A stretch of DNA of 32,000 bases from contig NC_017448.1 in assembly GCF_000146505.1 (NCBI RefSeq), positions 2,310,001-2,342,000 on the forward strand, read 5' to 3'. The DNA is from Fibrobacter succinogenes subsp. succinogenes S85 (lineage in GTDB: Bacteria > Fibrobacterota > Fibrobacteria > Fibrobacterales > Fibrobacteraceae). Numbering within the stretch: position 1 is the first letter of the stretch; the number at the start of each line of letters is the position of its first letter. Below are positions 2,632-32,000 of the stretch, in pieces. A model generated the notes under the pieces. It was given only the letters and a program-made list of their open reading frames with translations, had not been told where the DNA came from and ran no database searches. Position numbers and translations under genes: made by a program.

Positions 2632-2646
2632 TGGGAGGTAACTAGA

Positions 2647-8591: not shown

Positions 8592-10187
8592 CTACTCGCT
8601 CAATTCAACTTCCACAATGCCGCGGACGGAATTGAAACAGTAGATTTTCTCGGCTGTTTGAAGGTCACTCGGGTACAGGATTTTTTCTTTGGCCTTGCCT
8701 TCGTTCAAAAGCTTTTGTCTTGTGATGCCGTTTAAAAGCCCGCACTCAATAGGCGGCGTGTAGATGATGCCGTCTTTTAGAATGCCGATGTTCGTGAACG
8801 TGCCTTCGGTGATTTCTCCCTTCTCGTTTACGCAGATTTCGTCAAAGACGTCTTTCGGGAACGGCAGTCGGATGCTCGTTTTGTGATACAGGAACGGATT
8901 GGATGAATCTACTTTGTGTACGATTTTGATTCTTGGATTTTGCTTGGGTGCAGGAATCGGTCTTGTTGTGAGTTCAAAGTGACCGTCTTTGAAAAGCTCA
9001 ATCCTGTTCACGACGGACTTGTCGAACTTGATTTTTTCAAGGTCGCTGTTCCAGGTGAAACCGAGTGCGTTTGCGGAATTTCTCAAACGTTCAAGATGCA
9101 ACTCGAAATCGGTGATGCCGGTTTCAATCAGAGAAAAATCGGTATTCAAAAAACTTGCCTTGGTCATTGTTTCATTCCATTCGTCGTCTGCGGTAGAGGC
9201 CCAAGTGATAGCGCCGCCTGCATCGTATCTGTATTCCGATTCGCCTAGCTTTTTCTGCAAGATTCTGATGGGGACGGAGAAAATCATTTCGTCGCCGTGG
9301 ATGTAGCCGATGGCGCCGCAGTAGACTTCTCGCGGGAATGGTTCTGCATTCGCGATGACTTCCATTGTAGAAATTTTTGGCGCACCCGTGATGGAACCGC
9401 ATGGATAAATCGCGTTGATGATGTCGTAAAGCGTTGTGCCGTCTTTCAGTTCCGATGAAATCTCGGAGGTCATTTGGAAAACGGTTTTGTGCTTTTCAAC
9501 TTCAAATAGTTTGTCTGCGCGGACAGTTCCCGGTTTTGAAATTCTCCCGAGATCGTTTCGCAGCAGGTCAACAATCATGACGTTTTCGGTGCGGTTCTTT
9601 AAGTCGTTGTGCAAGAATTCTTGCAACGCATTGTCTTCTTCGGAAGTCTTGCCGCGCTTGAGCGTTCCCTTCATGGGCTTTGTCAAAATCTTGTTGCCGC
9701 GCTTCACAAAAAACAGTTCCGGCGAGAAAGACAAAATTGTCTCGTACTTGTTTTGCAAAAAGGCGTTGTAAGGAGTCTTCTGGTTTTGCAAAAGGAACTG
9801 GTATAAGTCTAAATCACTTGCGTTTGTTCTTAGCGTTGAAGGGTATGTGTAATTGACTTCGTATGTAATTCCGTTCTTGATTTGCTCTTTGATGTAATCA
9901 ATCTTTTGTGAGTATTCTTCTTTTGATATACGTGGCTTTACGATGGTGCCGATTTTGTAGTCTGGGATTTTTTCTTCAAATGGCTGGAACGAGTCAAAAG
10001 CTTCAAAGTAGATCAGGGGTGCTTCACCTGCTATATTCTTGAGATCGTAGCGCATGTAGCCGAGAAGGTAATAGCCTTGGCGTTGCAAAGATTCAATTTT
10101 GTCGAGTGCGGACTGGACCTTTTGCGGGTCGAAAATTTCAATGGTTTCGATAGGATTATTAAATATTTTATTGGTATATATTTGCAT
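8592..10187 (-). CDS. pabB: Aminodeoxychorismate synthase component I fused to an aminodeoxychorismate lyase-like (class IV aminotransferase fold) domain
   Basis: Chorismate-binding motifs are ...MIVDLLRNDLGRI..., PCGSITGAPK and YCGAIGY. The C-terminal approx. 190 aa carry the PabC-like ...EGTFTNIGILKDGIIYTPPIECGLLNGITRQ. The start is set at MQIYTNK (CAT at 10185-10187), because the longer ORF overlaps the divergent gene. Confidence 0.85.
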   Translation of the reverse strand: MQIYTNKIFNNPIETIEIFDPQKVQSALDKIESLQRQGYYLLGYMRYDLKNIAGEAPLIYFEAFDSFQPFEEKIPDYKIGTIVKPRISKEEYSQKIDYIKEQIKNGITYEVNYTYPSTLRTNASDLDLYQFLLQNQKTPYNAFLQNKYETILSFSPELFFVKRGNKILTKPMKGTLKRGKTSEEDNALQEFLHNDLKNRTENVMIVDLLRNDLGRISKPGTVRADKLFEVEKHKTVFQMTSEISSELKDGTTLYDIINAIYPCGSITGAPKISTMEVIANAEPFPREVYCGAIGYIHGDEMIFSVPIRILQKKLGESEYRYDAGGAITWASTADDEWNETMTKASFLNTDFSLIETGITDFELHLERLRNSANALGFTWNSDLEKIKFDKSVVNRIELFKDGHFELTTRPIPAPKQNPRIKIVHKVDSSNPFLYHKTSIRLPFPKDVFDEICVNEKGEITEGTFTNIGILKDGIIYTPPIECGLLNGITRQKLLNEGKAKEKILYPSDLQTAEKIYCFNSVRGIVEVELSE

Positions 10188-10281
10188 AATCACAGAACTC
10201 TTTTTTGCGGCGCAAATATAATTATTATATATTACAGAAGTGGTTCTGTGGGGTATCTGTTTTTTCTTTGAGAGGGTGGTT

Positions 10282-11973
10282 ATGTTATCGCGTATTGCTT
10301 TGATGGCGACATTCTTGTTGGGGCTTGCTTGCGTGCCTGCGTCTTTTGCGGCGGGGCTTGTAAAGCAGAAGATTGACTCCACCGACTACATGATTACTCT
10401 TCCGAATTACGACCGTGGTTTTTATACGCCACAGGTGTTGCATATAAAGCCATCGGGAGGCAAGCCGATTGAAAAGCCGTACAGCAAGCTTTTGCATTTG
10501 CGTGCTGAGATTTCGGAATTCAGTAGCCGTGCGTGGCTAGGGATTGATACGACGGGCGGCAAGAAGGATACGACTTGGGGCAAGAGCCAGGACCTGACTG
10601 AAGACGCATTGAATGTGTTGCAACAGACGTTTGACAATATTCGCGCGAACAAGGGTTTTGTAATTGTGCGTATCTGTTATGACCCGTGGTACAATGGTCG
10701 CAGTAACGTGACCCCGGAACACAAGTGGGTGTTACGCCATGTGGAACAGCTCGCGCCTGTGCTTTCGAAGAATACTGATGTGATCGTCGCGCTTGAAATG
10801 GGCATGCACGGCGCCTATGGCGAAATGCATTCCGACACGAGCATTACTTACGACCGCGTTACCGAAGCGACGAACCTGATGCTCCGCAATACGCCTCCCG
10901 AACTCAAGATTCTCACGCGAACGGGCAACTATTCAGCGAAGGTACTCGGCTTTGATAACTGGGGCGTGGACTTCCATATCGATGGCGAAAAGTTTGCTGA
11001 AATTGCAAAGGCCAAGGGCGATACGATGTACCGCGTGGGAATGTTCAATGACGGCTACTTGGGTACGCAATACGATTACGGCACGTGGGGCGCGGATTGC
11101 AAGACTTCTATCTGCCGTGAAGAAGGTGTTGCCTGGCTTGAAAAGTACGGCATCAACACGCCTTATGGCGGTGAAGCGCTTACGACGGCGAACGGCTACC
11201 AGGTCATCAATACGCCGGAGTTCTTGGCATACGAAGGTTTCCGCACGCACACGAGCTATTTGAATATCCAGTGGAACAACAACCTGATTAATAGCTGGAA
11301 AAAGACGCTGTTCAAGCAGAAAGATTTTGATTATGACCCGGCGCGAGTCGATTCGCTGACAGGTTTCAAGTACATCAATGACCACTTGGGCTACCGCTTT
11401 GTACTGCGTGAATCATGGCTGAGCGATACGGTGGGTTCTGACCATGTGCTCCATGCAAAATTCCGCGTGCAGAACGTGGGCTTTGGCAACCTCACTTGGA
11501 AGGCTCCGGTAAAGCTTGCCGTTTTGGAAGACCTGGAAGGTAGCGATTTGGATATGTGCCCTGACATGGATTATGTGGACCTGCCTGATGTTGATTTTCG
11601 AAACGTCCATAGCCGCACCATTTCAATTGCGGGTGGTGATACTGTGATGACTTTTGACGGTAACAACGAAATTGAGGTTTCCGTTAAACTGGGCAAACTT
11701 CGTTATCGTAATTATCAGGTGTATTTGAAGGTGGGCAACATTGAGTTTGCCAATGATAAGCCTAGTGGAAAGGGTACTTGTGGCCTAGAACAGCCTGCCG
11801 CTTATTTGGGCAAGTTCTATTTTGATGAAAGTGTTCAGTCTATTGCTCCGCGTGTAGTTCGTGGCTCTGTGCAAAAGTCGCAAACGCCTTATGTGGAGCG
11901 GGTTCGCAACAACATGATCATCCGCAATGGCGAGCGTTCTTATAGGTTAAACGGAGCTGGAATAACGCCGTAA
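10282..11973 (+). CDS. Secreted DUF4874/DUF4832-like protein (putative glycoside-hydrolase-like)
   Basis: A GAGAGGGTGG RBS precedes the ATG at 10282. Signal peptide MLSRIALMATFLLGLACVPASFA. The family call comes from remembered motifs (EMGMHGAYGEMH, HLGYRFVL) and has not been searched. Confidence 0.5.
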   Translation: MLSRIALMATFLLGLACVPASFAAGLVKQKIDSTDYMITLPNYDRGFYTPQVLHIKPSGGKPIEKPYSKLLHLRAEISEFSSRAWLGIDTTGGKKDTTWGKSQDLTEDALNVLQQTFDNIRANKGFVIVRICYDPWYNGRSNVTPEHKWVLRHVEQLAPVLSKNTDVIVALEMGMHGAYGEMHSDTSITYDRVTEATNLMLRNTPPELKILTRTGNYSAKVLGFDNWGVDFHIDGEKFAEIAKAKGDTMYRVGMFNDGYLGTQYDYGTWGADCKTSICREEGVAWLEKYGINTPYGGEALTTANGYQVINTPEFLAYEGFRTHTSYLNIQWNNNLINSWKKTLFKQKDFDYDPARVDSLTGFKYINDHLGYRFVLRESWLSDTVGSDHVLHAKFRVQNVGFGNLTWKAPVKLAVLEDLEGSDLDMCPDMDYVDLPDVDFRNVHSRTISIAGGDTVMTFDGNNEIEVSVKLGKLRYRNYQVYLKVGNIEFANDKPSGKGTCGLEQPAAYLGKFYFDESVQSIAPRVVRGSVQKSQTPYVERVRNNMIIRNGERSYRLNGAGITP

Positions 11974-12203
11974 AACGCTAAATAAATTTTGCGTGTTTTA
12001 TGTAACTTTTTGCAAATGAATGAATCCATGCAAATTTTTCAGTATATATTAATCGCATGCAAAACTGGTACTTTATTATTGTTGTTTCTATAATTTTTGT
12101 CTCTGCCTTGTTCGCTTCTGCTGCATCGACTCCGATGTAGTGAAAACAAGAAACGCTACCGATTGTCGCTAACCATTAATGGCTAAAAATATATATTAGG
12201 GGT

Positions 12204-13082
12204 ATGACTTTACGTTCTATCCTCTTTTGTCGTTTTGCGGTGGTGTTGTCTGCGCTTTTGTCTTTGTCGGCGAGCGCGTTTGCAAAAGAAAAAGTCTTTG
12301 AAGAAAAAATCGATTCGCTGTTTTCAAAGCGGATGGAACTCCCAATGGTGAGTTCTAAGCTGGAACGATTGAATGGTAAGTTTGTTCCGGTCTGTGGCAA
12401 CGTGATAGATGAAGTTGATGAGCACACTCTTGACTTGTTGGCGGATGACGATTTGTTTGCGGCGGAGAGCCTTTACAATATCTTGAATGAGCGGATGCTT
12501 TTGAGGAACAAATCTCTTTTGCAAAAGGCTTCGCCAGAAATCCAGCGCAAGTATAAAAGCCTTTCGAGCCGATTTAACTTCATCAATTTGGAACGGATTA
12601 GAATCCACGTTGATTTTTATTATGACCGCGAAAAGCGTAATTGGGTCCGCCCGGTCAGTGATTCTGTAATCACCATGACGATGATTGTCAAGTCGGGGTA
12701 TTTCCTTTATCAGGACGGTGATTCCGTAATTGATATACGCCGCTATGGCTATTACATTCCGGGCTCGAACGTAAAGCGCATTTTCTTTAGCGATGGCTAT
12801 TCCGAGGTTCTGTGGGATAGCCCGGATATGGTGGCGCTAGATTCAATGAGGGTATTGCCGTATAAGCTTGTCGAGAAAATTTCCATTGAAAATGGCGATG
12901 TGCATAACCGACAGAAAATAAAAAAGCTCCTGAAGAGCGGAGATTTTGCGGCGATACCGCATGTCCTTCAGGAGATGGATGAATATTGCGAAGTGAATTC
13001 GTGTACTGAAGCCGCCGATTACAAACGCTACCTGAATATGCTGGCGCTGCTTTATAAGAGCGGCGTACTCCGGCGTTTTTAA
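12204..13082 (+). CDS. Secreted hypothetical protein
   Basis: Signal peptide ...ALLSLSASAFAKE. No recognisable motif. Its end overlaps the convergent rpe stop by 4 nt. Confidence 0.6.
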   Translation: MTLRSILFCRFAVVLSALLSLSASAFAKEKVFEEKIDSLFSKRMELPMVSSKLERLNGKFVPVCGNVIDEVDEHTLDLLADDDLFAAESLYNILNERMLLRNKSLLQKASPEIQRKYKSLSSRFNFINLERIRIHVDFYYDREKRNWVRPVSDSVITMTMIVKSGYFLYQDGDSVIDIRRYGYYIPGSNVKRIFFSDGYSEVLWDSPDMVALDSMRVLPYKLVEKISIENGDVHNRQKIKKLLKSGDFAAIPHVLQEMDEYCEVNSCTEAADYKRYLNMLALLYKSGVLRRF

Positions 13083-14318: not shown

Positions 14319-14366
14319 CATTTTGTGTAAAATAGTAAACTAGTGAAAAACGAAAATATTGTTATA

Positions 14367-14408
<42 letters not shown>

Positions 14409-14428
14409 TTTTCTAAATTTGCCCCCGT

Positions 14429-15688
14429 ATGAAATATTCCATCCCTGATTCAGTGCTTTTGAAAGCGGCCAGTGAATACGGCACCCCGCTTTGGATTTAT
14501 GACCGTGCGACGATTGAACGTGCTGTAAAGGACGTGCAGGTTTTTGACACTGTGCGCTTTGCTCAAAAGGCATGCCCGAACCTCTCTGTGGTTTCGCTCA
14601 TCCGCAAGCTTGGCTGCGTTGTCGACGCCGTCTCCGCTGGTGAAATTGTGCGCGCCCTCAAGGCCGGCTTCAAGGGTGGACAGCAGAAGGGCAAGGTTCC
14701 TGAAATTGTCTATACAGCCGATATCTTCGACCGCGATGCACTCGAACTCGTGAAGAAGTACGATATCGCCGTGAACGTGGGCTCTCCGGACATGATCCAG
14801 CAGCTCGCTGATTTTGGCGTGAAGTCTGAACTCACCATCCGCGTGAATCCGGGCTTTGGCCATGGTCACTCCCGCAAGACGAATACCGGTGGCGATCTTT
14901 CCAAGCACGGCATTTGGCACGAACAGATTAAGGACTGCATCAAGCTCGCCCAGAGCAACGGCATGTGGATTACCGGTTTGCATATGCACATCGGTTCCGG
15001 CACGGATTTTGAACACTTGGCCCAGGTTTGCGATGCCATGGTGGACGCTAGCCGTCACCTCGGTTCTCACCTCCGCACGATTAGCGCTGGTGGTGGCCTC
15101 CCGATTCCGTATCACGAAGAAGAAAAGGGCAACCGCATTGACGTGAAGGCTTACTATGATTTGTGGGACAACGCCCGCAAGCGTATCCAGCAGAGCATTG
15201 GTCATGATGTCCATCTCGAAGTGGAACCGGGCCGTTATCTTGTTGCAGAAAGCGGCTACCTCGTTGCGGAAATCCGCGCTGTGAAGAAGCAGGGAAGTAA
15301 TTTGTTCTACTTGCTCGACGCGGGCTTTACCGATCTCGTTCGCCCGAGCTTCTACGGTAGCTATCATGCTATTTCTGTGGTTGCCCGTGACGGTCGTGAA
15401 CTGAACGAAACTGTTGACGCTGTTGTGGCTGGCCCGCTTTGCGAATCCGGGGACGTGTTCACGCAGGAAGAAGGTGGCTTTGTCGTGACGCGCAAGCTCC
15501 CGAAGGCTCAGGTGGGTGACCTCTTGATTCTCCATGATGCTGGTGCTTACGGTGCCGCCATGAGCAGCAACTACAATAGCCGTCGCTACGCTGCTGAAAC
15601 GATGTACACGAAGGGTGAAATCAAGCTCGTTCGTGAACGCCAGACTTTCGAACAGCTTTTGCAGAACGATCGCATTATCGAACTGTAA
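14429..15688 (+). CDS. lysA: Diaminopimelate decarboxylase
   Basis: YGTPLWIYD, GGGLPIPY, EPGRYLVAESG and CESGD are fold-III PLP decarboxylase / LysA motifs over the full 419 aa. Confidence 0.95.
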   Translation: MKYSIPDSVLLKAASEYGTPLWIYDRATIERAVKDVQVFDTVRFAQKACPNLSVVSLIRKLGCVVDAVSAGEIVRALKAGFKGGQQKGKVPEIVYTADIFDRDALELVKKYDIAVNVGSPDMIQQLADFGVKSELTIRVNPGFGHGHSRKTNTGGDLSKHGIWHEQIKDCIKLAQSNGMWITGLHMHIGSGTDFEHLAQVCDAMVDASRHLGSHLRTISAGGGLPIPYHEEEKGNRIDVKAYYDLWDNARKRIQQSIGHDVHLEVEPGRYLVAESGYLVAEIRAVKKQGSNLFYLLDAGFTDLVRPSFYGSYHAISVVARDGRELNETVDAVVAGPLCESGDVFTQEEGGFVVTRKLPKAQVGDLLILHDAGAYGAAMSSNYNSRRYAAETMYTKGEIKLVRERQTFEQLLQNDRIIEL

Positions 15689-15720
15689 GCGATTGCCGTT
15701 CCTGACGCTTTATATAGCCG

Positions 15721-15751
15721 CCCCGCACACTGTTGCGGGGTTGCTTTTTTT
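15721..15751 (+). terminator. lysA terminator
   Basis: CCCCGCA-cactgt-TGCGGGG followed by TTGCTTTTTTT. Confidence 0.8.
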
Positions 15752-15788
15752 ATAGGCGTTTTATAGTATATTTAAAATGCGATAATTT

Positions 15789-16649
15789 ATGAATATTTGG
15801 CCTAAACTCAACTTGACTTGTGCGAAATTTTCTTTGGTCGTTGAACGTCCAGAGGAGTTTATGTGGTTCCCCGAGGCGGTGCTGCGAGGTGCTTTAGGGT
15901 ATTTTTGGCATGCCGAGGGCCTACGATTTGTTCGTCTATATGATCTTTTCTTTGGTGCTACCGAGCAGGCGGAACTTGAACGAATTGCAACGCCTCCGGT
16001 GGGTGCCTTGCTGAACTGCAATCATTGCGGCGAGAATCGTTTTGAATTGAATGCTATTTTGTTTGGAAAATGCGAAGAGCAAGTCCCTCTTTTGCTTGAA
16101 TCACTCCATATCTTGGGGCATGAGGGTGTCGGCGAAAGGTATGTACGTTTTTTTGTCGATGGACTGCCGAGGTTTAAAACAAATGAAATATGCAATTGCG
16201 TGTGTGATGATCCTGTCGATGGCCGTATTTTGCCGTTGTCGTTTTCCCCTGAACATGGCGTGTGCCTTGATATAGTGCGCCCTATGACGCTTCGCGCCTT
16301 GGGCGGTAAGTTTTTGATGGAATGGGATACGGGGGCGTTCTTCCGTAATTTGGTTCAGCGTCTGAGGCTGCTTTCGCAATTTTATGGAGAGCCGCTCCCT
16401 CCTGATTGGGGTGAAAATGTGCTAGAAGATGTTGCTCAAATCGTTGCTAGTTCTGATACTCGGATAGTACATCGTGCGCGTCGGAGTACGCGACAAAATG
16501 CAAGGCTGGATTACTCGGGATTTACGGGGTCGGTGGTGCTCCGCCGTGTGTCCGCCGACTTGTTTGGGTTGTTGCGCATGGGTCGCCTGGTTGGTGTTGG
16601 AAAAAATACCGTGATGGGTAGCGGGCGCTATTTGGTGTCGCTGCTTTAA
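15789..16649 (+). CDS. Orphan Cas6-like RAMP protein (Cas6 C-terminal / DUF2276-type)
   Basis: The C-terminal glycine-rich loop is LVGVGKNTVMGSGRYLV, a G-h-G-x5-G-x-G pattern. The N-terminal FSLVVERP..FPEAVLRGALGYF resembles a RAMP beta1. A basic RRSTRQNARLDYSGFTG precedes the G-loop. There is no SD before the ATG at 15789, so the start is uncertain. The family call has not been searched. Confidence 0.55.
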   Translation: MNIWPKLNLTCAKFSLVVERPEEFMWFPEAVLRGALGYFWHAEGLRFVRLYDLFFGATEQAELERIATPPVGALLNCNHCGENRFELNAILFGKCEEQVPLLLESLHILGHEGVGERYVRFFVDGLPRFKTNEICNCVCDDPVDGRILPLSFSPEHGVCLDIVRPMTLRALGGKFLMEWDTGAFFRNLVQRLRLLSQFYGEPLPPDWGENVLEDVAQIVASSDTRIVHRARRSTRQNARLDYSGFTGSVVLRRVSADLFGLLRMGRLVGVGKNTVMGSGRYLVSLL

Positions 16650-16668
16650 ATTTGTTCTCTTTTTTTGG

Positions 16669-16699
16669 TTGACGATATCTCCTTGGATAAGGATATAAT
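16669..16699 (+). promoter_or_regulatory. Putative promoter (T-tract, GGTTGACG, 19 nt, TATAAT)
   Basis: ttgacg at 16669-16674 and tataat at 16694-16699. Three other island intergenic regions have the same layout. Confidence 0.45.
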
Positions 16700-16738
16700 T
16701 ATTGGCGATTAAAGAAACTTTTAAACAAGGAGAACAAA

Positions 16739-16882
16739 ATGAATCAGGTTAAAAAAGTGATTGCTTACGTTGCCGCTACAGCTGAAGCCGCCAAGGTCCT
16801 CGTTGATGTGTATGAAAAATACAGGGCCAACGTTAAGGAAATTAAGGATAATTCCTGTTCCGGTCCGACGGTAGACGCCTAA
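16739..16882 (+). CDS. Mini-protein, 47 aa (MNQVKKVIAYVAATAEAAKVLVDVYEKYRANVKEIKDNSCSGPTVDA)
   Basis: A strong AAGGAGAA RBS lies 6 nt upstream. The helix is predicted to be amphipathic. It shares the MNQ(V/L)K start with the next mini-ORF. It is absent from the ORF track because it is under 60 aa. Confidence 0.45.
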   Translation: MNQVKKVIAYVAATAEAAKVLVDVYEKYRANVKEIKDNSCSGPTVDA

Positions 16883-16919
16883 TCCCCCAAAATTCAACCC
16901 CAAAAAAAGGAAATACAAT

Positions 16920-17018
16920 ATGAACCAGCTTAAAGGAATCATCACCATCGTCTCTGCTGTGGTTACTATCGTGAGTACCATTCAAAAAATGACCACGAAA
17001 AGTGCTCCCCGCGTATAG
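16920..17018 (+). CDS. Mini membrane protein, 32 aa (MNQLKGIITIVSAVVTIVSTIQKMTTKSAPRV)
   Basis: AAAGGAAA RBS. One hydrophobic helix is followed by a basic tail. A terminator follows directly. Confidence 0.45.
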   Translation: MNQLKGIITIVSAVVTIVSTIQKMTTKSAPRV

Positions 17019-17039
17019 AGCAAGTTTAACCTTCAACCT

Positions 17040-17062
17040 GCCCGCTTTTTAGCGGGCCTTTT
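17040..17062 (+). terminator. Rho-independent terminator after the mini-protein pair
   Basis: GCCCGC-ttttta-GCGGGC followed by CTTTTGTGCTTTTT. Confidence 0.7.
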
Positions 17063-17124
17063 GTGCTTTTTATATATTTCAAAAAAATCTCGGCGAAAAA
17101 TCGCTATCTGAAAGGAGAAGTTTT

Positions 17125-25416: not shown

Positions 25417-26388
25417 ATGCCGACGAACGCAATCAACTTCCCCAAAAATTTCCAGAACGCAGATAGTTTCGCTCGTTTCGCCAAGGTCTCGCCCTTGGTG
25501 GTTAACTGGCACGCTCTGGAGCATTGCAACTATAAGTGCTCTTTCTGCTACAGCGACTGGAACAGCCGTGATGAAGCTTGGAACACCCCCGAAAACGTCC
25601 GCAAGGTGATCGAGAATATCGCCCGTTTCCATGCCGATTATTTTGGCGCAGATGCAGCTCCCTGGCGCTTGAGCGTTGTGGGCGGCGAACCCATCCTCTT
25701 CCCGAAAAAGGCGCAGTTCATGGTCAAAACGGCTGTTGCGTGTGGTGCCGAGGTCTCGATAATCACGAATGGCAGTCACCTTGAGAACGCATTGCCCTTT
25801 GCACACCTCCTTTCCCAGGTGGGTATTTCGCTCGATTCCTTTGTTCATGAAACCAACTTGAAGATTGGCCGCCAGTGCAATGGTCACACGCTCTCCTTTG
25901 AAGAGATTTCGGATAAGATTGCTGCACTCCGTGCCGTTAATCCGAACGTCCGCGTGAAGGTGAACACTGTCGTCAACCAGAATAACTTCGGTGAAGTCCT
26001 TGTTGACAAGGTGGCAGCACTCGGTGCAACTAAGTACAAAATTTTGCGCCAGATGCCGTTTGGTGGCAACAAGGGTATTACGGACGATGAATTCCATGTG
26101 TTTATCCGTAACAATTACCGCGAGGACCTTTTCGGTCACGACGATGGTAAGCGTCACATCTTCATCGAGGATAATTCCGTGATGACGCAGAGCTATTTGA
26201 TGATTGCTCCGAACGGTTGCTTGTTCCAGAACGGTGGCGCGGAATACCGTTACAGCCGCCCTCTCATGGAAACCCCGTTTGAAGAGGCTCTGAAAGACAT
26301 CAACTTCTCTGCCGAAAAGTTCTTTAGCCGTTACACATCTACGGCGACGGACGCGATCCTCGCCCGTATGCATGAATGTGCTGCATAA
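25417..26388 (+). CDS. Prokaryotic viperin homologue (pVip, radical-SAM nucleotide dehydratase family)
   Basis: VNWHALEHCNYKCSFCY aligns with viperin VNYHFTRQCNYKCGFCFH. Other pairs (this protein / viperin) are VVGGEPIL / FSGGEPFL, VSIITNGSHL / VSIVSNGSLI, GISLDSF..TNLKIGRQ / AISCDSF..VNVLIGRG, VKVNTVVNQNN / FKINSVINRFN and QSYLMIAP / DSYLILDE. The start is set at the ATG at 25417. Confidence 0.9.
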   Translation: MPTNAINFPKNFQNADSFARFAKVSPLVVNWHALEHCNYKCSFCYSDWNSRDEAWNTPENVRKVIENIARFHADYFGADAAPWRLSVVGGEPILFPKKAQFMVKTAVACGAEVSIITNGSHLENALPFAHLLSQVGISLDSFVHETNLKIGRQCNGHTLSFEEISDKIAALRAVNPNVRVKVNTVVNQNNFGEVLVDKVAALGATKYKILRQMPFGGNKGITDDEFHVFIRNNYREDLFGHDDGKRHIFIEDNSVMTQSYLMIAPNGCLFQNGGAEYRYSRPLMETPFEEALKDINFSAEKFFSRYTSTATDAILARMHECAA

Positions 26389-26689
26389 ATTCACTCATCT
26401 TTCACTTCAAACAAAGGAGAATAACTTTATGTTCATTCTGATTTCAATTATCCTCGCAAAAATCCTCTAAGGCGCAAGCCACGCCCGGCTCGGAGGCGTA
26501 AAACCTGAGCCGTGTGGAGCCTACGGTATAAGGCCAACTTTTATCTCACATAGGTTCCCCGAGCCTTTAAAATCGGGGGTTCATAGACCTTAGGCGACGA
26601 GGTGTCGCTGAGGTCACAGTGGTCACAACGCTCGAGGCTGGGATGTTCCCAGTGTCGGTAATGCCGCATGGCAAAAGGAGATAAAAGTT

Positions 26690-27427
26690 ATGACGACGAT
26701 TACAACAAATTCCAAAATCGAATCCCTCATTGAATCCGCACGCAAGCATGGCGATAGCGCCTCAATCAATGCTCTTTATGAGCTTTACGAGGAAAAGTTC
26801 AAGTCTGCTGCGATGTATCATTTCAAACGTATTCCTTTCAACTTCGATGTGGCGCGACTCCCGAACAGTCGCTATAAACAGGACTTGATCATCAGTGCTG
26901 CTTACGATGCCTTTGTGAAGACGTACAAGACTTACGACGGCTCGCGTGGTGCCAGTTTTGTGACTTTGCTTAACAGGAACATTGAATGGCTCTTCAAGGA
27001 TCTGCAAAAAGAAAACGCTAAGGAAAGCAAGCGTTGGAAGAACAGTACTGACGCTATATACAGCAAGCGCAAGCAGGACTATACTGACGACCTTGAAAAT
27101 GTTTCCTGCAGTTCTCGCGATGCCTACGATACCTGCGACACCGACATGGTCAATGAAGTTCTGAGCACGATGCAGGGCGCAGCCCGCAAGAATGCCGAGG
27201 CTCTGTACCGCATCTTTTCTGAAGAAGGTGCTGATAAGCAGTGCTCCGCAGCAGACCGTCTCGGGATTTCGCGCCAGGCAATCAACAAAAGTTTCAAGTC
27301 GTACAGGGAATATGGCCCCAAGGCGATTCGCGACAGAGTCCTCGAAACGTTGAGGGAAAAAGCGTCCCAACGTGTAGTCGGGACAAAGACCACGAATTGC
27401 AATGTTTTTAAAGACGAATCTAAGTAG
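26690..27427 (+). CDS. Divergent sigma-70-family (ECF-like) protein
   Basis: AAAGGAGA RBS. The region-2-like segment is ALYELYEEKFKSAAMYHF...ISAAYDAFVKTYKTYDGSRGASFVTLLNRNIEWLFKDLQKE. The region-4 HTH is SAADRLGISRQAINKSF. Confidence 0.65.
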   Translation: MTTITTNSKIESLIESARKHGDSASINALYELYEEKFKSAAMYHFKRIPFNFDVARLPNSRYKQDLIISAAYDAFVKTYKTYDGSRGASFVTLLNRNIEWLFKDLQKENAKESKRWKNSTDAIYSKRKQDYTDDLENVSCSSRDAYDTCDTDMVNEVLSTMQGAARKNAEALYRIFSEEGADKQCSAADRLGISRQAINKSFKSYREYGPKAIRDRVLETLREKASQRVVGTKTTNCNVFKDESK

Positions 27428-27455
27428 GTCGTAACAAACAAAAAAGGAGTCTATT

Positions 27456-29450
27456 ATGACACAGTTCAAAAATCTTGCCGCATTCACGCTTTTCGCAGTT
27501 TCGTTGTTAGCCTCGGTTGTCAGCGCCGCCGGATCCAATTTGTTTGAATTCAAATCGGCGAATGTGCCGCCTGGTTCCATGGCCATTGAATACTATGGCG
27601 CCCTTTCGGGAATTTATCAGGGTAAAGACAACCTTTTCTTTAAGGGTGCCGACACGGTGCATGTGTATTTCGTTGGCGAACTTCGCGACAGCAAAATGGT
27701 CAATGGCGCTGCCGAAATCAAGGACGAGGAACGTCATGTCTCTTACACCGGGAACATTGTGAACGGCGTTATGCAAGACGACCATGCCGAAGCAACAAGA
27801 GTAAAGTCCAAAAAGTCCATGGAGTTCTTTAGCGGTAGTTTTAACGGCTACGAGTTCGACTCCTGCTTTTACGCCAATAGCGGAACTTCGGAACGGTATA
27901 TCGGAAAAATGTCCAACGGCAAATTCAATGACGTCAGTGCCTCTTACGTTGGCCCGCTGTACAGGATTTACAATGGGGATTTTTCCTCCTATGCCATCCA
28001 GAGCGACTTCTTTGATTTCTCGCCTGTGAATTTCAGTCGCAAGGACATGGCGACATTCCAGGGTGCCATGCGTGACGGCCGCATCGCGGACTTCGGGAGC
28101 CTTTCTGTTGTTCACAAAGGCGACACTCTGCACTATACAGGTGATTTTGAAAATGCCCAAGTAAATGGTGTCGGTACTGTAAAGGTGGGCGATTTGTATT
28201 CGTATGTTGGGCATTTCGCAAAGGGGCTGATTGCGGGGCTTGGCGAAATCACGTCGGATCATTTTTCTCGCCTGTTCACCGAAAGCGAACATGTACCTGC
28301 AGGGACTATTTCCATCAAGGGAATCTGGGCAGGGATTTCTGGACTCGGCACGTATTTCCGCGTGACGGACGAGGACGGTGCAAATGTCAAGCTCAAAATG
28401 AACGACGGAACCATCGAAGAGTTGAGCAGTCTGCAGCGTTTCAGAAACTGGGTTAGCGAAACAGGCGTTTCCGAGTGGATCGTGTCGCACAGAAGCGAAA
28501 TCGACAAAGTCATTACCGGGGCGGCCTTTGTAGATGCAGGTGTTTGCGCAAGCCTCCTGATCTTCCCGGCTTCGGCTCCGGTGACAGGCCCAATCTGTGG
28601 TGGAGGTTTCTTTACCATAGTGGGTACAGAGGCTGTGCTTCAGTTGATCTTGACGTTTGATGCCATCAACGAACAATGCTATACCGAAGATTGCGTCGAA
28701 GACTTGTGGAAAAACTTTGGCAAGGAACAGCTCTTCAATGCCGGATTGATTCTGTTGCCTCCGGTAATTGCACGAGCAGGCAAGGCGGTTGCGCCTACTC
28801 TCAAGTCGTATTTGGCTACGGTCAAGGAGTTTGGCTATACAAGGGCTATTGCGATGAGCAAGAACGCGCAGGCCGTGAAAGAGCTTGAAATGCTCCCGGA
28901 AATCAGCCTCCCTCGTGTCAGGGAAATCGATGTCCTCAACGACAGACTCGCCTTTAAGCAGGCCGTTGTCGACTACACCGGCAAGAGTTTTAGGGATGGC
29001 TTTGTGGAATTCTTTGTCCGTCTGAAAAAGTCCGGACAGGAAAATCTGATCAAGGACATTTGGAAAAGCCACAAGGATTTCATCAAGAACAGTGGAATCC
29101 GTGCCGGTGGTGAACACGAATGGCTCGAGGCGGATCGTTTCGTTGATTACCTGCTGAATCCGAAGTGGGGGAGTGATGGCGCTTACCTTGCCTACATACT
29201 CCCTAGAATGACGCAAAGGACAACGGGCGTAAAATTTGCCAATGGCGGCGCGCACACGATTGTTGACGAAACCGGGCGCAAAATTCCTGGGCCGAACAGC
29301 GGAAGTTTCCATAAGACTCTTGGTGAAACTATCGGGAGCTGCAATACCGCAAGCTGCGTGTTCGGCAAGATGAAAAGTTTTGCCTCGCGCGAGTTGACCT
29401 CGTCTTCGTACAAGGAATACCTCGCCATGGAACGTGCCGTTTTAGAGTAA
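27456..29450 (+). CDS. Membrane protein: signal peptide, MORN-like repeats, approx. 3 TM segments, then an unknown approx. 220-aa C-terminal domain
   Basis: AAAGGAG RBS. Signal peptide ...LLASVVSAAGS. Repeated YxGxxxxG units include YTGNIVNGV, YIGKMSNGKF, YTGDFENAQVNGVG and YVGHFAKGLIAGLG. Hydrophobic stretches cover residues approx. 352-402 and 426-440. The C-terminal domain carries GGEHEW, NGGAHT and SFHK. Confidence 0.8.
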   Translation: MTQFKNLAAFTLFAVSLLASVVSAAGSNLFEFKSANVPPGSMAIEYYGALSGIYQGKDNLFFKGADTVHVYFVGELRDSKMVNGAAEIKDEERHVSYTGNIVNGVMQDDHAEATRVKSKKSMEFFSGSFNGYEFDSCFYANSGTSERYIGKMSNGKFNDVSASYVGPLYRIYNGDFSSYAIQSDFFDFSPVNFSRKDMATFQGAMRDGRIADFGSLSVVHKGDTLHYTGDFENAQVNGVGTVKVGDLYSYVGHFAKGLIAGLGEITSDHFSRLFTESEHVPAGTISIKGIWAGISGLGTYFRVTDEDGANVKLKMNDGTIEELSSLQRFRNWVSETGVSEWIVSHRSEIDKVITGAAFVDAGVCASLLIFPASAPVTGPICGGGFFTIVGTEAVLQLILTFDAINEQCYTEDCVEDLWKNFGKEQLFNAGLILLPPVIARAGKAVAPTLKSYLATVKEFGYTRAIAMSKNAQAVKELEMLPEISLPRVREIDVLNDRLAFKQAVVDYTGKSFRDGFVEFFVRLKKSGQENLIKDIWKSHKDFIKNSGIRAGGEHEWLEADRFVDYLLNPKWGSDGAYLAYILPRMTQRTTGVKFANGGAHTIVDETGRKIPGPNSGSFHKTLGETIGSCNTASCVFGKMKSFASRELTSSSYKEYLAMERAVLE

Positions 29451-29477
29451 CACTCAATTTTTAAAAGGAGATAAAAA

Positions 29478-30164
29478 ATGCAGAATTTCAAGAATTACCG
29501 TAAATACGAAATTAGCAGCAGGCTTGGTGACAACCTTCCGCTTGACGTGATGATTGTGGGCGCTACAGGTGCTGGCAAGTCGTCGCTCGTCAATGCCCTT
29601 TGTGGCGGAGCGGTTGCATGCGTGGGCGAGGGCGTGGACCCCGAAACCATGGATATCACTCGCTATGCGCTCAACAACCATTTTTGCGTGTGGGATACGC
29701 CTGGGCTTGGCGACAGTGCCGTTGCGGATGCTAGCCATAAACGCAATATTGTCAAACATCTGCTGAAGACATACGAAAATGGCGGAGCGCGTTACCGTTT
29801 CATGGACCTTGTCCTTGTGGTGCTCGAGGGCGGCATTCGTGACATGGGCTCGTGCTACTCGCTTTTGAACGAAGTCGTTGTCCCGAACATTGACCGCGAA
29901 CGCATCGTTGTGGCTATCAACCAGGCCGATATCGCCATGAAGGGGACGCATTGGGATTCTTGGCGCAACAAGCCCGATGCGGTGCTTGACTCGTTCCTGC
30001 GCGACAAGGCCGAATCGGTCAGGCGGCGCGTTTACGAAGCGACAGGTGTTTCTATCCGTACGCCGGTGTGCTTCTCGGCTGGAACTGGCTACAACATGGA
30101 TGCCGTGGTCGATGCCTTGATTGAGCAGATCCCGCGCTACCGCCCAGCCGTGCGCCATGCATGA
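29478..30164 (+). CDS. P-loop GTPase, YfjP/YeeP (MMR_HSR1)-like, paralogue 1
   Basis: G1 is GATGAGKSS, G3 is WDTPGLGD, and G4 is the variant NQADI. AAAGGAGA RBS. Confidence 0.85.
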   Translation: MQNFKNYRKYEISSRLGDNLPLDVMIVGATGAGKSSLVNALCGGAVACVGEGVDPETMDITRYALNNHFCVWDTPGLGDSAVADASHKRNIVKHLLKTYENGGARYRFMDLVLVVLEGGIRDMGSCYSLLNEVVVPNIDRERIVVAINQADIAMKGTHWDSWRNKPDAVLDSFLRDKAESVRRRVYEATGVSIRTPVCFSAGTGYNMDAVVDALIEQIPRYRPAVRHA

Positions 30165-30179
30165 AGTTGAAAAAAATGG

Positions 30180-30210
30180 TTGACACTTTCACCGCAAAAG
30201 CAGATGTAAT
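30180..30210 (+). promoter_or_regulatory. Putative promoter (A-tract, GGTTGACA, 19 nt, TGTAAT)
   Basis: ttgaca at 30180-30185 and tgtaat at 30205-30210, with gaaaaaaat upstream. Confidence 0.45.
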
Positions 30211-30249
30211 AGACAAAAGAATTCAACAAGGTTCATAAGGAGAACTAAA

Positions 30250-31266
30250 ATGACTTACAATACGAACAACATGGAATTTGTTACCAAGATGGAACACGAT
30301 ATCGAAGCCTCTGGCCTCCCGGATGCAGTCAAGCACAAGCTTCTTGCCAACTTGCTGCTCCTCAAGAGCAAGAAGGTGAACCTCCTCATCACGGGTGCCA
30401 CGGGCTGTGGCAAGAGTTCAACCATCAACGCGCTCTTTAATGCCGACGTGTCGAAGGTGGGTGTAGGTGTGGACCCCGAAACCATGGAAATCGAGAAGTA
30501 CGAACTCGGCAACCTCGTTTTGTGGGATAGCCCGGGGCTTGGCGACGGCAAGGAAGCCGACAACCGTCACGCGAAAAACCTCACCGCGAAACTCCTCGAA
30601 CGCGACGCCGATGGCAATCCGCTGATTGACCTCGTGCTGGTGATTCTCGACGGCAGCTCCCGCGACATGGGTACTTCCTTCGAGCTTATCAGCAACGTGA
30701 TTGTCCCGAACCTCGGCGAAGACAAGTCCCGCATTCTGGTAGCGATCAACCAGGCCGACATGGCCATGAAGGGTCGCGGCTGGGACCGCGTGAACAACAG
30801 GCCCGAACCCGCTTTGGAGCAGTTCTTGCAGGAGAAGGTGGAATCCGTTAGGCGCCGCATCAAGGAAAGTACGGGTGTTGATGTGGAACCCATCTACTAT
30901 AGCGCAGGCTACAAGGATGGTGATGCTCCGCAGAGACCCTACAACTTGACCAAGCTCCTGTACCAGATTGTCCACTACACGCCCAAGGAAAAGCGCACGA
31001 TTTACGCGAACAACATCAACCGCGACCGTGAAATGTGGAAGGACGACGACGAACTCAAGGACTACCGCAACAGCATTCTGGACGATATTGTTGAATCGAT
31101 TTCGGACTGTGCTGAGACCGGGGCCGAGATTGGCGAAAGTCTGGGTGGCCTTTTTGGTAGCGCAGGCCGTACTGTGGGCCGTGTTGCAGGCCGCGTTGTC
31201 GGTGGCGCTTTCGGGGCGGTCAAGAGTATCGCGAAGTCCTTCTTCGGCGGACTCTTTGGCTGGTAA
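30250..31266 (+). CDS. P-loop GTPase, paralogue 2, with a C-terminal glycine-zipper / amphipathic tail
   Basis: GATGCGKSS, WDSPGLGD and NQADMAMKG. The core is clearly paralogous to 29478-30164. The tail is ...GAEIGESLGGLFGSAGRTVGRVAGRVVGGAFGAVKSIAKSFFGGLFGW. Confidence 0.85.
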   Translation: MTYNTNNMEFVTKMEHDIEASGLPDAVKHKLLANLLLLKSKKVNLLITGATGCGKSSTINALFNADVSKVGVGVDPETMEIEKYELGNLVLWDSPGLGDGKEADNRHAKNLTAKLLERDADGNPLIDLVLVILDGSSRDMGTSFELISNVIVPNLGEDKSRILVAINQADMAMKGRGWDRVNNRPEPALEQFLQEKVESVRRRIKESTGVDVEPIYYSAGYKDGDAPQRPYNLTKLLYQIVHYTPKEKRTIYANNINRDREMWKDDDELKDYRNSILDDIVESISDCAETGAEIGESLGGLFGSAGRTVGRVAGRVVGGAFGAVKSIAKSFFGGLFGW

Positions 31267-31319
31267 CGCCCCCACCTGCTCCTCATTAGCCACTTTGTGT
31301 GTCCCTTGTGTTGTGGCAG

Positions 31320-31565
31320 GGCGGTCCCGGTGAAAACCGGGGCCGTTTTTTATTTGGCAATTGAGGGCGCGGAGCCTAAAATTTCCCATTTTCACTCAAA
31401 AAAGTGTAAATTTAAGGTGTCCGGTCTGCATGGCCGGGTCGCAACTTGACATTTGATACAGACAACAAAAACGCCAATTTCGGGTGCGGCTGTTGCCAAC
31501 GGCCGCCTGGAACCCTTTATTTATGCAGGTTCCAGAGGGGTACTCCCTGAAAAGCATTCCTCTCG
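31320..31565. repeat. Non-coding repeat unit, copy 1
   Basis: Bases 31320-31466 match 31674-31820 at a 354-bp offset, with 5 mismatches in 147 nt counted by eye. Bases 31467-31565 recur at 31849-31869 and 31921-32000. Confidence 0.9.
31323..31351 (+). terminator. Rho-independent terminator (also the start of repeat copy 1)
   Basis: GGTCCCGGT-gaaa-ACCGGGGCC followed by GTTTTTT. Confidence 0.8.
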
Positions 31566-31593
31566 CAAGAGAGATCTTTTTTCAAAAAACAGG

Positions 31594-31624
31594 TTGACAC
31601 TTTTGTTGTCTTTGTCGATATATG
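31594..31624 (+). promoter_or_regulatory. Putative promoter (A-tract, GGTTGACA, 19 nt, TATATG) driving a short terminated transcript
   Basis: ttgaca at 31594-31599 and tatatg at 31619-31624. The 12 nt ggttgacacttt are identical to the promoter at 30178. Confidence 0.4.
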
Positions 31625-31673
31625 TTATGTCAGACGCTCGTTACGTTCGGCATAACATTTTACTCCTGAGGTT

Positions 31674-32000
31674 GGCGGTCCCGGTAAAAATCGGGGCCGT
31701 TTTTTATTTGGCAATTGAGAGCGCGGAGCCTAAAAATTCCCATTTTCACTCAAAAAAGTGTAAATTTAAGGTGTCCGGTCTGCATGGCCGGGTCGCAACT
31801 TGACATTTGTTACAGACAACATTCGTGTTACCATGCCGAAATTGAGCTAAAAACGCCAATTTTGGGTGCTTTTTAGGGTTTTGTAAAGAAAAATTAAAAT
31901 TCTATTAAGTGCTTTTGCGTGCAGTTGTTACCAACGGCCGCCTGGAACCCTTTATTTATGCAGGTTCCAGAGGGGTACTCCCTGAAAAGCATTACTCTCG
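31674..32000. repeat. Non-coding repeat unit, copy 2, with two insertions; truncated by the window end
   Basis: Collinear with copy 1. Extra segments sit at 31821-31848 and 31870-31920. Confidence 0.9.
31677..31705 (+). terminator. Rho-independent terminator (start of repeat copy 2)
   Basis: GGTCCCGG-taaaaa-TCGGGGCC followed by GTTTTTT. Confidence 0.75.

Follow-up and report, generated by a model that had tools for sequence, protein, structure and literature searches.

A 38.9-kb strain-variable island downstream of lysA in Fibrobacter succinogenes S85, a probable type III-D CRISPR-Cas locus with nested defense modules

We analyzed a stretch of 32,000 nucleotides from Fibrobacter succinogenes subsp. 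succinogenes S85 (NCBI RefSeq assembly GCF_000146505.1, contig NC_017448.1, positions 2,310,001 to 2,342,000 of the forward strand; this whole stretch is called the window), in which lysA is followed by cas6 and a long series of putative defense genes (Table 1). A reading made from the letters alone, referred to here as the original prediction, had described this series as an accessory island of conflict-type and unknown genes that starts right after the lysA terminator, with housekeeping and glycan-degradation genes to its left. Domain searches agreed with this gene content. The genes left of 15.7 kb encode GH18 and GH9 proteins, a PabB-like enzyme, a DUF4874/DUF4832 protein, ribulose-phosphate epimerase, a CBM48 protein and LysA; from 15,789 onward every gene of the window lies on the + strand, and Pfam, PADLOC and NCBIfam reproduced the predicted gene list. 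The LysA protein of the window is identical to that of the S85 record CP001792.1, window position x being equal to position x + 1,863,275 of this record, and the region to the right of the window was seen as three segments (L010, L106 and L116; labels of this form are our names for loci).

The borders of the island were defined by comparison with the lysA loci of 80 Fibrobacter species, a single locus with 10-kb flanks being taken from each. Island genes occur downstream of lysA in 0 of the 80, apart from one cas6 fragment. In the closest relatives among these loci, blastn homology to the window ends at 15,688-15,751, and a conserved set of genes comes after lysA, encoding two membrane proteins (301 and 256 aa), a cupin and a phosphoglucosamine-mutase-like enzyme. 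S85 has an identical cupin sequence, through which we retrieved the right flank of the S85 island (L116), where the 301-aa membrane-protein gene comes after csx20. Nine other strains or species, whose flanks are 91-98% identical to S85 at the nucleotide level, have an empty site in which 130-290 nt separate lysA from the 301-aa membrane-protein gene. Against these empty sites, homology stops at window positions 15,688-15,694 and restarts at L116 8,113-8,123. Since several relatives share the terminator T-run ...TTTTTTTATAG with S85, we place the left junction at ~15,753, where the original prediction had accurately put it. The right junction, correctly expected to lie beyond the window, is at window coordinate ~54,694, giving an insertion of ~38.9 kb of which the first 16.2 kb are inside the window. 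At the junctions, the empty-site relatives read ...TTTTTTTATAGCCAAG.CCATAC... and S85 reads ...TTTTTTTATAGGC(island)CCATACC. This insertion is a strain-variable accessory island: the S85 gene order 3' of lysA is not shared by these relatives, and the accessory status claimed for these genes is upheld by synteny, although the type III-D locus that organizes them had been missed.

No flanking direct repeats were seen at the S85 junctions in comparison with the empty sites. As a candidate target-site duplication we considered the TTTTATAG motif, which occurs twice on the left side; it has no mirror on the right and was rejected. A tRNA scan of the window found none, and no integrase or transposase domain was detected in the window proteins, as had been predicted. 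Extension to the right reached the border and revealed neither an att site nor a recombinase domain in the scanned S85 island open reading frames (ORFs). The cas6 fragment mentioned above lies in another Fibrobacter species (L020 12131-12667, - strand), between lysA and the conserved 301-aa gene; it is 38% identical and suggests that CRISPR DNA has been present at the lysA site on more than one occasion.

The first gene of the island encodes a full-length Cas6, with a glycine-rich loop near the C-terminus (VGVGKNTVMGSGRY, read from the sequence). The original prediction took it for an orphan Cas6-like RAMP, a claim that did not survive: it is the sole cas6 of the 38.9-kb insertion, and its cognate repeats lie 15 kb downstream, non-cas genes of the same orientation filling the 14.6 kb from cas6 to the first leader. 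The 37-nt repeat, CCCTGAAAAGCATT(C/A)CTCTCGCAAGAGAGATTAAGAC, has 22 copies in L010 (0 expected) and 47 matches in L106; 27 of these 47 S85 matches are canonical. Each repeat contains a 5-bp GNRA-capped hairpin, CTCTC-GCAA-GAGAG, followed by the 8-nt tag ATTAAGAC, and a hairpin with an 8-nt tag is the layout expected of Cas6-processed type I and type III repeats.

The arrays begin at the very end of the window. What had been described as tandem non-coding repeats are indeed direct repeats (31320-32000), but they correspond to two copies of a CRISPR leader, with the first repeat of array 1 starting at 31,980 (CCCTGAAAAGCATTACTCTCGCAAGAGAGATTAAGAC, L010 11731). The last part of leader copy 1 (31,320-31,581) is a degenerate solo repeat at 31545-31581, which has 6 mismatches and a T-run in place of the 3' tag. 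The promoter-like TTGACA-17-TATATG unit between the two leaders has six copies over the array region, and its fold consists of the terminator hairpin alone (z = -1.35). In all, S85 has nine mini-arrays comprising the 27 canonical repeats plus variant terminal repeats, with cas1-cas2 located between arrays 2 and 3. These mini-arrays (L106 6741-19400; window 31,267-43,926) hold 1-6 spacers each and have their own duplicated leader of ~300 nt, whereas in relatives with an identical repeat the arrays are fewer and longer (6-20 repeats). The units between arrays also contain a recurring promoter-plus-terminator element and two very small ORFs preceded by ribosome-binding sites, of 31 aa (MKTTQQSIW..., L010 16515-16610) and 18 aa (MRPIVTSV..., L010 16671-16727).

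The non-cas6 part of the CRISPR system, that is, the arrays, cas1-cas2 and a csx1-cas10d-cas7/cas5-csx20 module, makes up the remaining 22.7 kb of the insertion. The S85 insertion was seen throughout except for 1,024 nt between L106 and L116, a length that the unseen central part of csx1 (432 codons) accounts for exactly. Cas10d keeps the GGDD motif (within VLGGDDFT), and no N-terminal HD motif or domain was detected in it; a TIGR03986 RAMP is also present (255 bits against a cutoff of 161, scored on the homologue in locus L109). Judged by these matches, the type III-D gene set is complete, with the Cas10d cyclase palm, Cas5, Cas7 and small subunit, arrays, Cas6 and adaptation module. Its likeness to the known III-D class extends to a Cas10d with GGDD and an undetected HD motif, a III-D Cas5 and Cas7 fusions, the TIGR04423 small-subunit analogue, the TIGR03986 RAMP, csx1, csx20, cas6, cas1-cas2, and 37-nt repeats with an 8-nt tag. 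In contrast to that class, 14.6 kb of non-cas defense genes split cas6 from the rest, nine mini-arrays with duplicated leaders replace one or two arrays, and a structured element of ~85 nt, described below, is nested at the array ends. The S85 module presumably resembles the III-Dv complex of Synechocystis. Fibrobacter has been listed among the hosts of this III-D subclass (Shah et al., 2018; PMC6546367), and our literature search for Fibrobacter succinogenes together with CRISPR and Cas6 found no report.

Table 1. Features of the S85 island, in window coordinates, with the evidence for each.
Feature	Position	Strand	Evidence or remark
lysA terminator hairpin and left junction of the insertion	15719..15752	+	stem 15720-15741, then T-run (terminator scan)
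cas6, predicted endoribonuclease processing CRISPR RNA (crRNA)	15789..16649	+	PADLOC Cas6 2.3e-36, full length; Pfam CRISPR_Cas6 3.8e-12
mini1, 47-aa peptide	16739..16882	+	annotated gene in the S85 record and in relatives (46-83 aa there)
mini2, 32-aa hydrophobic peptide, one predicted transmembrane helix	16920..17018	+	32-aa gene annotated in most related loci
terminator after mini2	17040-17057		
predicted TPR-DUF3800 paralogue A (ParA, 668 aa)	17125..19131	+	N-terminal DUF3800 RNase H-fold (~1-222), C-terminal TPR superhelix
predicted TPR-DUF3800 paralogue B (ParB, 748 aa)	19166..21412	+	most AT-rich gene of the island, GC 0.38
terminator after ParB	21441-21460		
p198, 198-aa protein, overlaps kinase start by 20 nt	21592..22188	+	with type-1 triad in related loci
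Ser/Thr kinase, C-terminal zinc ribbon (TerY-P-type STK)	22169..23383	+	Pfam Pkinase 7.6e-11; CPYC...CIEC
vWA protein, MIDAS motif DTSGS	23435..24121	+	Pfam VWA 1.8e-11
PP2C phosphatase	24123..25124	+	Pfam PP2C_2 1.2e-54
prokaryotic viperin (pVip)	25390..26388	+	NCBIfam NF038283 274.2 bits against cutoff 180; PADLOC pVip 7e-79
245-aa protein, possibly ECF-like sigma	26690..27427	+	NCBIfam TIGR02937 E=0.0024, residues 26-203
p664, 664 aa, signal peptide, MORN-like repeats, hydrophobic segments	27456..29450	+	PDB MORN4 E=0.0011, residues 196-263
GTPase 1 (228 aa, TRAFAC, IRG/AIG1-like)	29478..30164	+	Pfam MMR_HSR1 1.7e-11; phrog_16468 8e-32
GTPase 2 (338 aa, IRG-like)	30250..31266	+	Pfam MMR_HSR1 7e-8, IIGP 1.4e-6; PDB IRG 5e-5
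terminator and CRISPR leader copy 1	31318..31581	+	direct-repeat families D1, D2; terminator-like sites 31318-31349, 31560-31573
promoter-like site TTGACA-17-TATATG and short transcript ending in terminator	31594..31705	+	repeat families D13, D9 (L010)
CRISPR leader copy 2 and first 21 nt of array 1 repeat 1	31706..32000	+	repeat start 31980
cas1-cas2	34,527-35,830		Cas1 TIGR00287 2e-63; Cas2 TIGR01573 8e-15
csx1 (CARF-HEPN)	outside window		PADLOC 4.8e-180, scored on L109 homologue
cas10d (505 aa)	~46,665-48,182		PADLOC Cas10d 1.6e-162; Pfam Cas10-Cmr2_palm2 2.6e-14
183-aa RAMP	outside window		Pfam RAMPs 6.2e-14
Cas5-IIId	outside window		PADLOC 5.4e-155
double Cas7 (467 aa)	outside window		Pfam RAMPs 2.9e-42, two stretches
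TIGR04423 small-subunit analogue (Cas11-like)	outside window		144 bits against cutoff 40, on L109 homologue
Cas7-IIId (755 aa)	outside window		PADLOC 1.9e-149
csx20	outside window, right end		PADLOC 6.8e-54

Directly after cas6 there are two genes for small peptides. The first, mini1, has a ribosome-binding site (aaggag) and a promoter-like TTGACG..GATATAAT upstream, both read from the letters, and a family search with it returned no match. The second, mini2, was found by tblastn in all related loci that are long enough, at 55-97% identity. These are followed by the genes of two giant proteins, ParA and ParB, which the original prediction had called paralogues of unknown kind. Their paralogy was confirmed by BLASTP (25% identity end to end, E=3e-35); as unknowns they no longer stand, since the family to which they can be assigned, combining TPR and DUF3800 domains, has already been described. 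A search of 1.84 billion representatives gave 178 clusters of this family, with proteins mostly of 650-740 aa. Pfam DUF3800 matches 21 of 59 diverse members, three of them above the Pfam cutoff at residues 5-227, and TPR models match 27 of the 59; the full-length homologues with above-cutoff DUF3800 have profile E-values of 1e-20 to 1e-22. Residues D9, E10 and D200 are invariant in the family alignment. The AlphaFold2 (AF2) model of ParA (predicted local distance difference test score, pLDDT, of 79) has an alpha/beta domain at 1-222 and helical repeats at 244-668, where pLDDT is mostly >80. Foldseek with the whole model placed Tom70/71, TPR subunits of APC/C and MalT domain III on top, the TPR part dominating the matches, and searches of PDB sequences with ParA-family profiles returned nothing or designed TPR proteins only. 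Taken together, homology and predicted structure make ParA and ParB probable members of the TPR+DUF3800 family. An earlier reading of the pair as divergent Cas10- or Cas8-like large subunits of a new effector was rejected because of this architecture and because a real cas10d module was found.

Proteins with TPR and DUF3800 (RNase H fold) domains are described as accessories in one sub-branch of Cas12a2, where UvrD is sometimes present as well (Altae-Tran et al., 2023; PMC10910872), and in type VI-F and V-A2 loci (Makarova et al., 2025; PMC12669027). A limited search of text-searchable papers found no report of TPR-DUF3800 with type III systems. The S85 proteins probably share the two-domain plan of the V-A2 and VI-F accessories and likewise lie inside a CRISPR locus of an RNA-targeting type; they differ in that they are partnered with type III-D, which belongs to class 1, the gene adjoins cas6 and is duplicated, peptides and a kinase/vWA/PP2C triad stand alongside, and the pair is the fastest-changing part of the island. 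As in some V-A2 loci, a distant homologue stands beside a UvrD helicase. This homologue (22% identity; L104 1279-3414, L105 740-4247), far from any Fibrobacter context, adjoins fragments of an RtcR-like CARF/sigma-54 activator and lies opposite a 1422-aa UvrD-like helicase. Among the Fibrobacter loci, S85 and the contig NODE_86 have their TPR-DUF3800 genes placed between cas6 and the arrays, and in L097, L103, L125, L126, L129 and L132 cas6 is adjacent to these genes. Because the family is tied to RNA-targeting CRISPR types and the pair sits beside cas6, we consider these two proteins the best candidate for a true CRISPR accessory in the island, a role as nuclease, sensor or RNA-processing factor being conjecture. 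So far reported with two RNA-targeting types of class 2 (V-A2 and VI-F), the family would thereby gain an RNA-targeting partner of class 1.

The next module comprises a kinase, a vWA protein and a PP2C phosphatase, preceded by p198. The p198 protein is found at 79-99% identity in L098, L100-102, L123, L125 and L132 and has no match in Pfam, PADLOC, NCBIfam or PHROGs. The kinase also matches the PADLOC PD-T4-6 kinase models (~1e-9), and the vWA protein, which carries a metal ion-dependent adhesion site (MIDAS), matches the PADLOC TerY model weakly (0.0029), so that its subtype is not secured. According to PMC11090510, which summarizes Anantharaman et al. (2012) and Gao et al. (2020), TerY-P unites a TerY-like vWA protein and a PP2C phosphatase with a Ser/Thr kinase whose C-terminus is a zinc ribbon or an OB fold; citing Gao et al. 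(2020), that paper reports that TerY-P-like triads act alone. By its domain matches the S85 triad fits this definition, with a MIDAS vWA protein, a PP2C phosphatase and a zinc-ribbon kinase in contiguous genes, the TerY-specific model being weak. It differs from TerY-P in its gene order (kinase-vWA-PP2C), in the extra, translationally coupled 198-aa protein, and in its context, a CRISPR locus instead of ter genes or CoCoNuT systems.

The viperin gene gives an equivalog-level match and encodes the CxxxCxxC radical-SAM motif (CNYKCSFC). Prokaryotic viperins reportedly serve as stand-alone defenses (Bernheim et al., 2021), and the S85 gene likewise stands alone, with no adjacent nucleotide kinase; apart from its place inside a cas locus, nothing sets it apart. 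The 245-aa protein that follows had been predicted to be a divergent sigma factor, for which we found only a sub-threshold match to extracytoplasmic function (ECF) sigma factors (17.5 bits against a cutoff of 42.9 for TIGR02937). It had no match in Pfam and none among PDB sequences, and its single-sequence AF2 model was unusable (pLDDT 42); a homologue that is 49% identical occupies the same position in L107. This protein is possibly an ECF-like sigma factor, which would recall the CalpL-CalpT-CalpS system, reportedly a type III-linked cascade of protease, anti-sigma factor and ECF sigma factor (Rouillon et al., 2023). S85, however, has no SAVED-Lon protease or anti-sigma partner, and the sigma match is below threshold. 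The MORN-like protein p664 was seen only in the S85 lineage: L132 has it, and L107, which is collinear in other respects, lacks it. Finally, both GTPases have the G1, G3 and G4 motifs. GTPase 2 matches phrog_16468 over its full length (8e-79); despite this strong match, tblastn against GenBank phages returned nothing. Its glycine-zipper-like hydrophobic tail (window 31120-31266, …GGLFGSAGRTVGRVAGRVVGGAFGAVKSIAKSFFGGLFGW) suggests membrane insertion. No CARF or SAVED domain was detected by Pfam, NCBIfam or PADLOC in any of the proteins embedded between cas6 and the arrays.

To place the S85 island among its relatives, we compared the contexts of ParA and Cas1 homologues, including 11 loci from a metagenome scan with alignment A1. 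About 11 distinct architectures were found in Fibrobacter at three chromosomal sites: after lysA (S85, L103, L129 and L132), after LemA/M48 (L095-L099 and L107) and after enolase (L100-L102). At the left junction every architecture begins with one or two genes for small peptides and one or two TPR-DUF3800 genes, preceded in most by cas6, with a homologue of the 32-aa peptide detected wherever the contig is long enough. A triad of one of two flavors comes next where the contig reaches it, sometimes after a STAND ATPase and a 502-aa protein. The cargo varies between islands and includes a 1140-aa helicase, a GH-E toxin with an ankyrin protein, viperin, p664, and the STAND ATPase with the 502-aa protein. 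In NODE_86 (L098 and L107, at the M48 site) the series goes on in exactly the S85 order, with viperin, the sigma-like protein, two GTPases, arrays with a repeat identical to that of S85, cas1-cas2, further arrays and csx1-cas10d and the following genes. Identity of relatives to S85 is 95-96% for the vWA protein, 90% for GTPase 2, 86-88% for the kinase, 80% for Cas1, 61-75% for Cas6, 58-70% for ParA and ParB and 49% for the sigma-like protein. A Transposase_31 (PF04754) gene lies between the arrays and csx1 in L107 (13416-14369) and L110 (4465-5418); the equivalent place in S85 has only three ORFs without annotation (48, 142 and 114 aa), of which those of 142 and 114 aa gave no domain match.

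Between lysA and GTPase 2, the metagenomic locus L132 has 96-97% nucleotide identity to S85, except that window 17,176-19,909 is replaced. Since it differs only there, we regard the TPR-DUF3800 genes as the diversifying cassette of the island. L132 has a single chimeric TPR-DUF3800 gene (2035-4278), with a ParB-like TPR part and a divergent N-terminal DUF3800 domain, which suggests domain or cassette swapping in these genes. In a compact and distant type III locus (Cas1 59% identical), one CARF-adenosine-deaminase gene and a 195-aa ORF stand between cas6 and cas1; because this relative carries the CARF-deaminase there, we take the cas6-cas1 gap to be the seat of ancillary genes in the lineage. 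The Fibrobacter type III locus L111 (4597-11709) encodes a Cad1-like CARF-adenosine-deaminase fusion (Cas_NE0113 and A_deaminase) between cas6 and the gene of a Cas1 of 478 aa. The individual parts of the S85 island are mostly of known kinds; new here are their arrangement, the linkage of TPR-DUF3800 proteins, peptides and triad to type III-D, and the diversification of the paralogues.

With a probability that we put at roughly 0.8, positions 15,753-32,000 are the left 16.2 kb of a 38.9-kb insertion that constitutes a complete type III-D locus with nested defense modules. Cas6 is not an orphan on this reading, because cognate repeats, cas1-cas2 and a full III-D effector module share the insertion and there is no other cas6. 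In such a locus, Cas6 would cleave pre-crRNAs at the CUCUC-GCAA-GAGAG hairpin, leaving the 8-nt AUUAAGAC tag, and the III-D complex would bind phage transcripts; the GGDD palm of Cas10d would then synthesize cyclic oligoadenylate (cOA), which would activate the HEPN RNase of Csx1. Viperin might add a further layer by yielding chain-terminating 3'-deoxy-3',4'-didehydro (ddh) nucleotides, the triad might act as a phosphorylation switch of the TerY-P kind, and the GTPase pair has a glycine-zipper tail that would suit membrane damage. By analogy with what has been proposed for V-A2 and VI-F, the two TPR-DUF3800 proteins, which together with the two peptides make up the fast-diversifying part, most likely act as CRISPR-linked RNase H-fold nucleases or sensors. 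Since the cargo varies, triads and viperins are reported to act alone and no CARF or SAVED sensor was detected, most of the nested modules are probably self-sufficient systems that share a defense island rather than effectors controlled by cOA.

Several observations weigh against this picture. Processing of crRNA, expression, cOA synthesis and phage protection are all inferred from sequence. Three 26-mers from the spacers had no match in IMG/VR. Pfam finds no DUF3800 in ParA and ParB themselves, so that their assignment comes through transitive homology. The block of peptides, TPR-DUF3800 genes and triad that heads the islands occurs without an adjacent cas6 in L095, L100 and L127, and the means of insertion left no integrase, att site or direct repeats that we could find in S85. 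Moreover, viperin, GTPases and triad travel with CRISPR genes in two lineages, which could reflect a functional link rather than neighborhood.

The presence of the same architecture after LemA/M48 in a relative, with an identical repeat, Cas1 80% and GTPase 2 90% identical, raises the question of how these units spread. It is conceivable, if rather unlikely, that the 39-kb unit is an integrative mobile element that carries CRISPR-Cas and defense cargo and inserts 3' of housekeeping genes. Such an element would account for related units at three sites (lysA, LemA/M48 and enolase), co-oriented with the flanking gene and with the head block at the left junction, for the clean junctions against empty sites, for the Transposase_31 gene inside a relative's locus and for the cas6 remnant at the lysA site in L020. 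Yet neither an integrase, a transposase or a tRNA nor direct repeats at the flanks were found in S85, IMG/VR gave no match either to the repeat core or to the ParA profile, the intergenic target itself varies between strains, and homologous recombination in the flanks accounts equally well for the copies at the lysA site.

A closer coupling of the cargo to CRISPR immunity seems more doubtful still. The whole block from cas6 to the arrays might be an accessory arm of the type III system, controlled by target-RNA recognition via cOA or via Cas6-processed RNAs. It is co-oriented inside the cas locus, at the place where a related locus has the cOA-dependent deaminase Cad1; triad, viperin, sigma-like protein and GTPases travel with cas6, cas1 and cas10d in two lineages whose loci occupy different sites; TPR-DUF3800 proteins are reported with two other RNA-targeting CRISPR types (PMC10910872, PMC12669027); and Cas10d keeps its GGDD motif. 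These points are offset by the lack of detected CARF and SAVED domains in the embedded proteins, by the gain and loss of cargo between near-identical islands and by the three architectures whose head block has no adjacent cas6. To a narrower version, in which the peptides, the TPR-DUF3800 proteins and the TerY-P-like triad form a new accessory arm of type III-D anchored by cas6, we give similarly little credence; there, the fast-swapping DUF3800/TPR proteins would sense or cleave RNA, either Cas6-processed or target-bound, and a signal would pass to the phosphorylation switch and a membrane-active peptide, leading to abortive infection in parallel to cOA-Csx1.

Least probable is a plain defense island of unrelated stacked modules in which Cas6 is an orphan RAMP without a CRISPR role: separate promoter-like sites and terminators, cargo that differs among related islands, and reports of viperins and TerY-P-like triads as stand-alone systems would all fit, but the orphan part is refuted by a full-length Cas6 with its glycine-rich loop, by 47 matches to a cognate hairpin/tag repeat in the same insertion, and by cas1-cas2 and a complete III-D effector module without a second cas6.

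If the preferred reading of a III-D locus with nested modules holds, what began as a list of conflict-type genes resolves into one well-delimited entity, a portable type III-D CRISPR locus of 39 kb that also serves as a defense island. With its exact borders and empty-site controls, S85 offers a system in a cultivable rumen bacterium for asking what DUF3800 nucleases do in CRISPR immunity, and whether defense modules nested in cas loci are wired to CRISPR signaling.

Composition follows the island borders only in part. Spot counts of G+C in single 60-nt lines, given with the original prediction as a sign of AT-richer parts, were exact (18/60 at 19381 and 16/60 at 20581, against 29/60 at 7021). 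Over whole genes, the stretch from cas6 to ParB (~5.6 of 16 kb) does deviate, with GC of 0.38-0.49 and GC at third codon positions (GC3) of 0.35-0.47, against ~0.51 overall and GC3 of 0.53-0.67 in core genes. Triad, viperin, p664 and GTPases, in contrast, are core-like (GC 0.47-0.56, GC3 0.56-0.72). The arrays have a GC of 0.46 and the III-D effector module one of 0.45; two core genes, pabB and the 292-aa hyp292, are at 0.445 as AT-rich as parts of the island. Composition alone is therefore insufficient to prove the island, and synteny does so. The claim that the modules carry their own promoters and terminators likewise held in part: strong intergenic hairpin terminators follow lysA, mini2, ParB and GTPase 2, but not every module.

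An element of ~85 nt with multiple stems lies inside the terminal CRISPR repeats (L106 7837-19556, window ~32,360-44,080; also in L107-L110), nested between ...GAGAGAT and TAAGAC in the variant repeats that end each array. The alignment of 17 distinct copies supports a six-helix fold of 26 pairs that includes the repeat hairpin: 98.4% of cells are paired, against 27-47% in slid controls, and 12 of the 26 pairs show compensatory changes. A covariance model found >30 copies in these arrays and none in the window; in other Fibrobacter genomes it gave seven good matches, of 40-50 bits, within intergenic DNA unrelated to CRISPR; loci with the core outside arrays include L020 16847-16932, L080 1253-1348, L033 10746-10841 and L016 5018-5103. 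Rfam scans gave no family for the window at gathering thresholds and, for the array region (E-value threshold), terminator-like matches below threshold only, leaving the element unmatched; no DUF3800-associated RNA motif appeared in either scan. We had considered the element as a CRISPR-specific, DUF3800-linked RNA, an idea that was downgraded because of the copies in non-CRISPR intergenic DNA. From these matches, it appears to be a dispersed structured repeat or noncoding RNA family that also occupies array ends.

The left flank of the window, although made of core genes, is itself a mosaic at 8592-13082, where the presence of the DUF4874/DUF4832 gene and of the 292-aa gene varies among close relatives. 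The heptamer TTCTAAG is repeated 5.7 times in tandem (96% matches) at positions 14361-14419, directly 5' of the lysA start codon.

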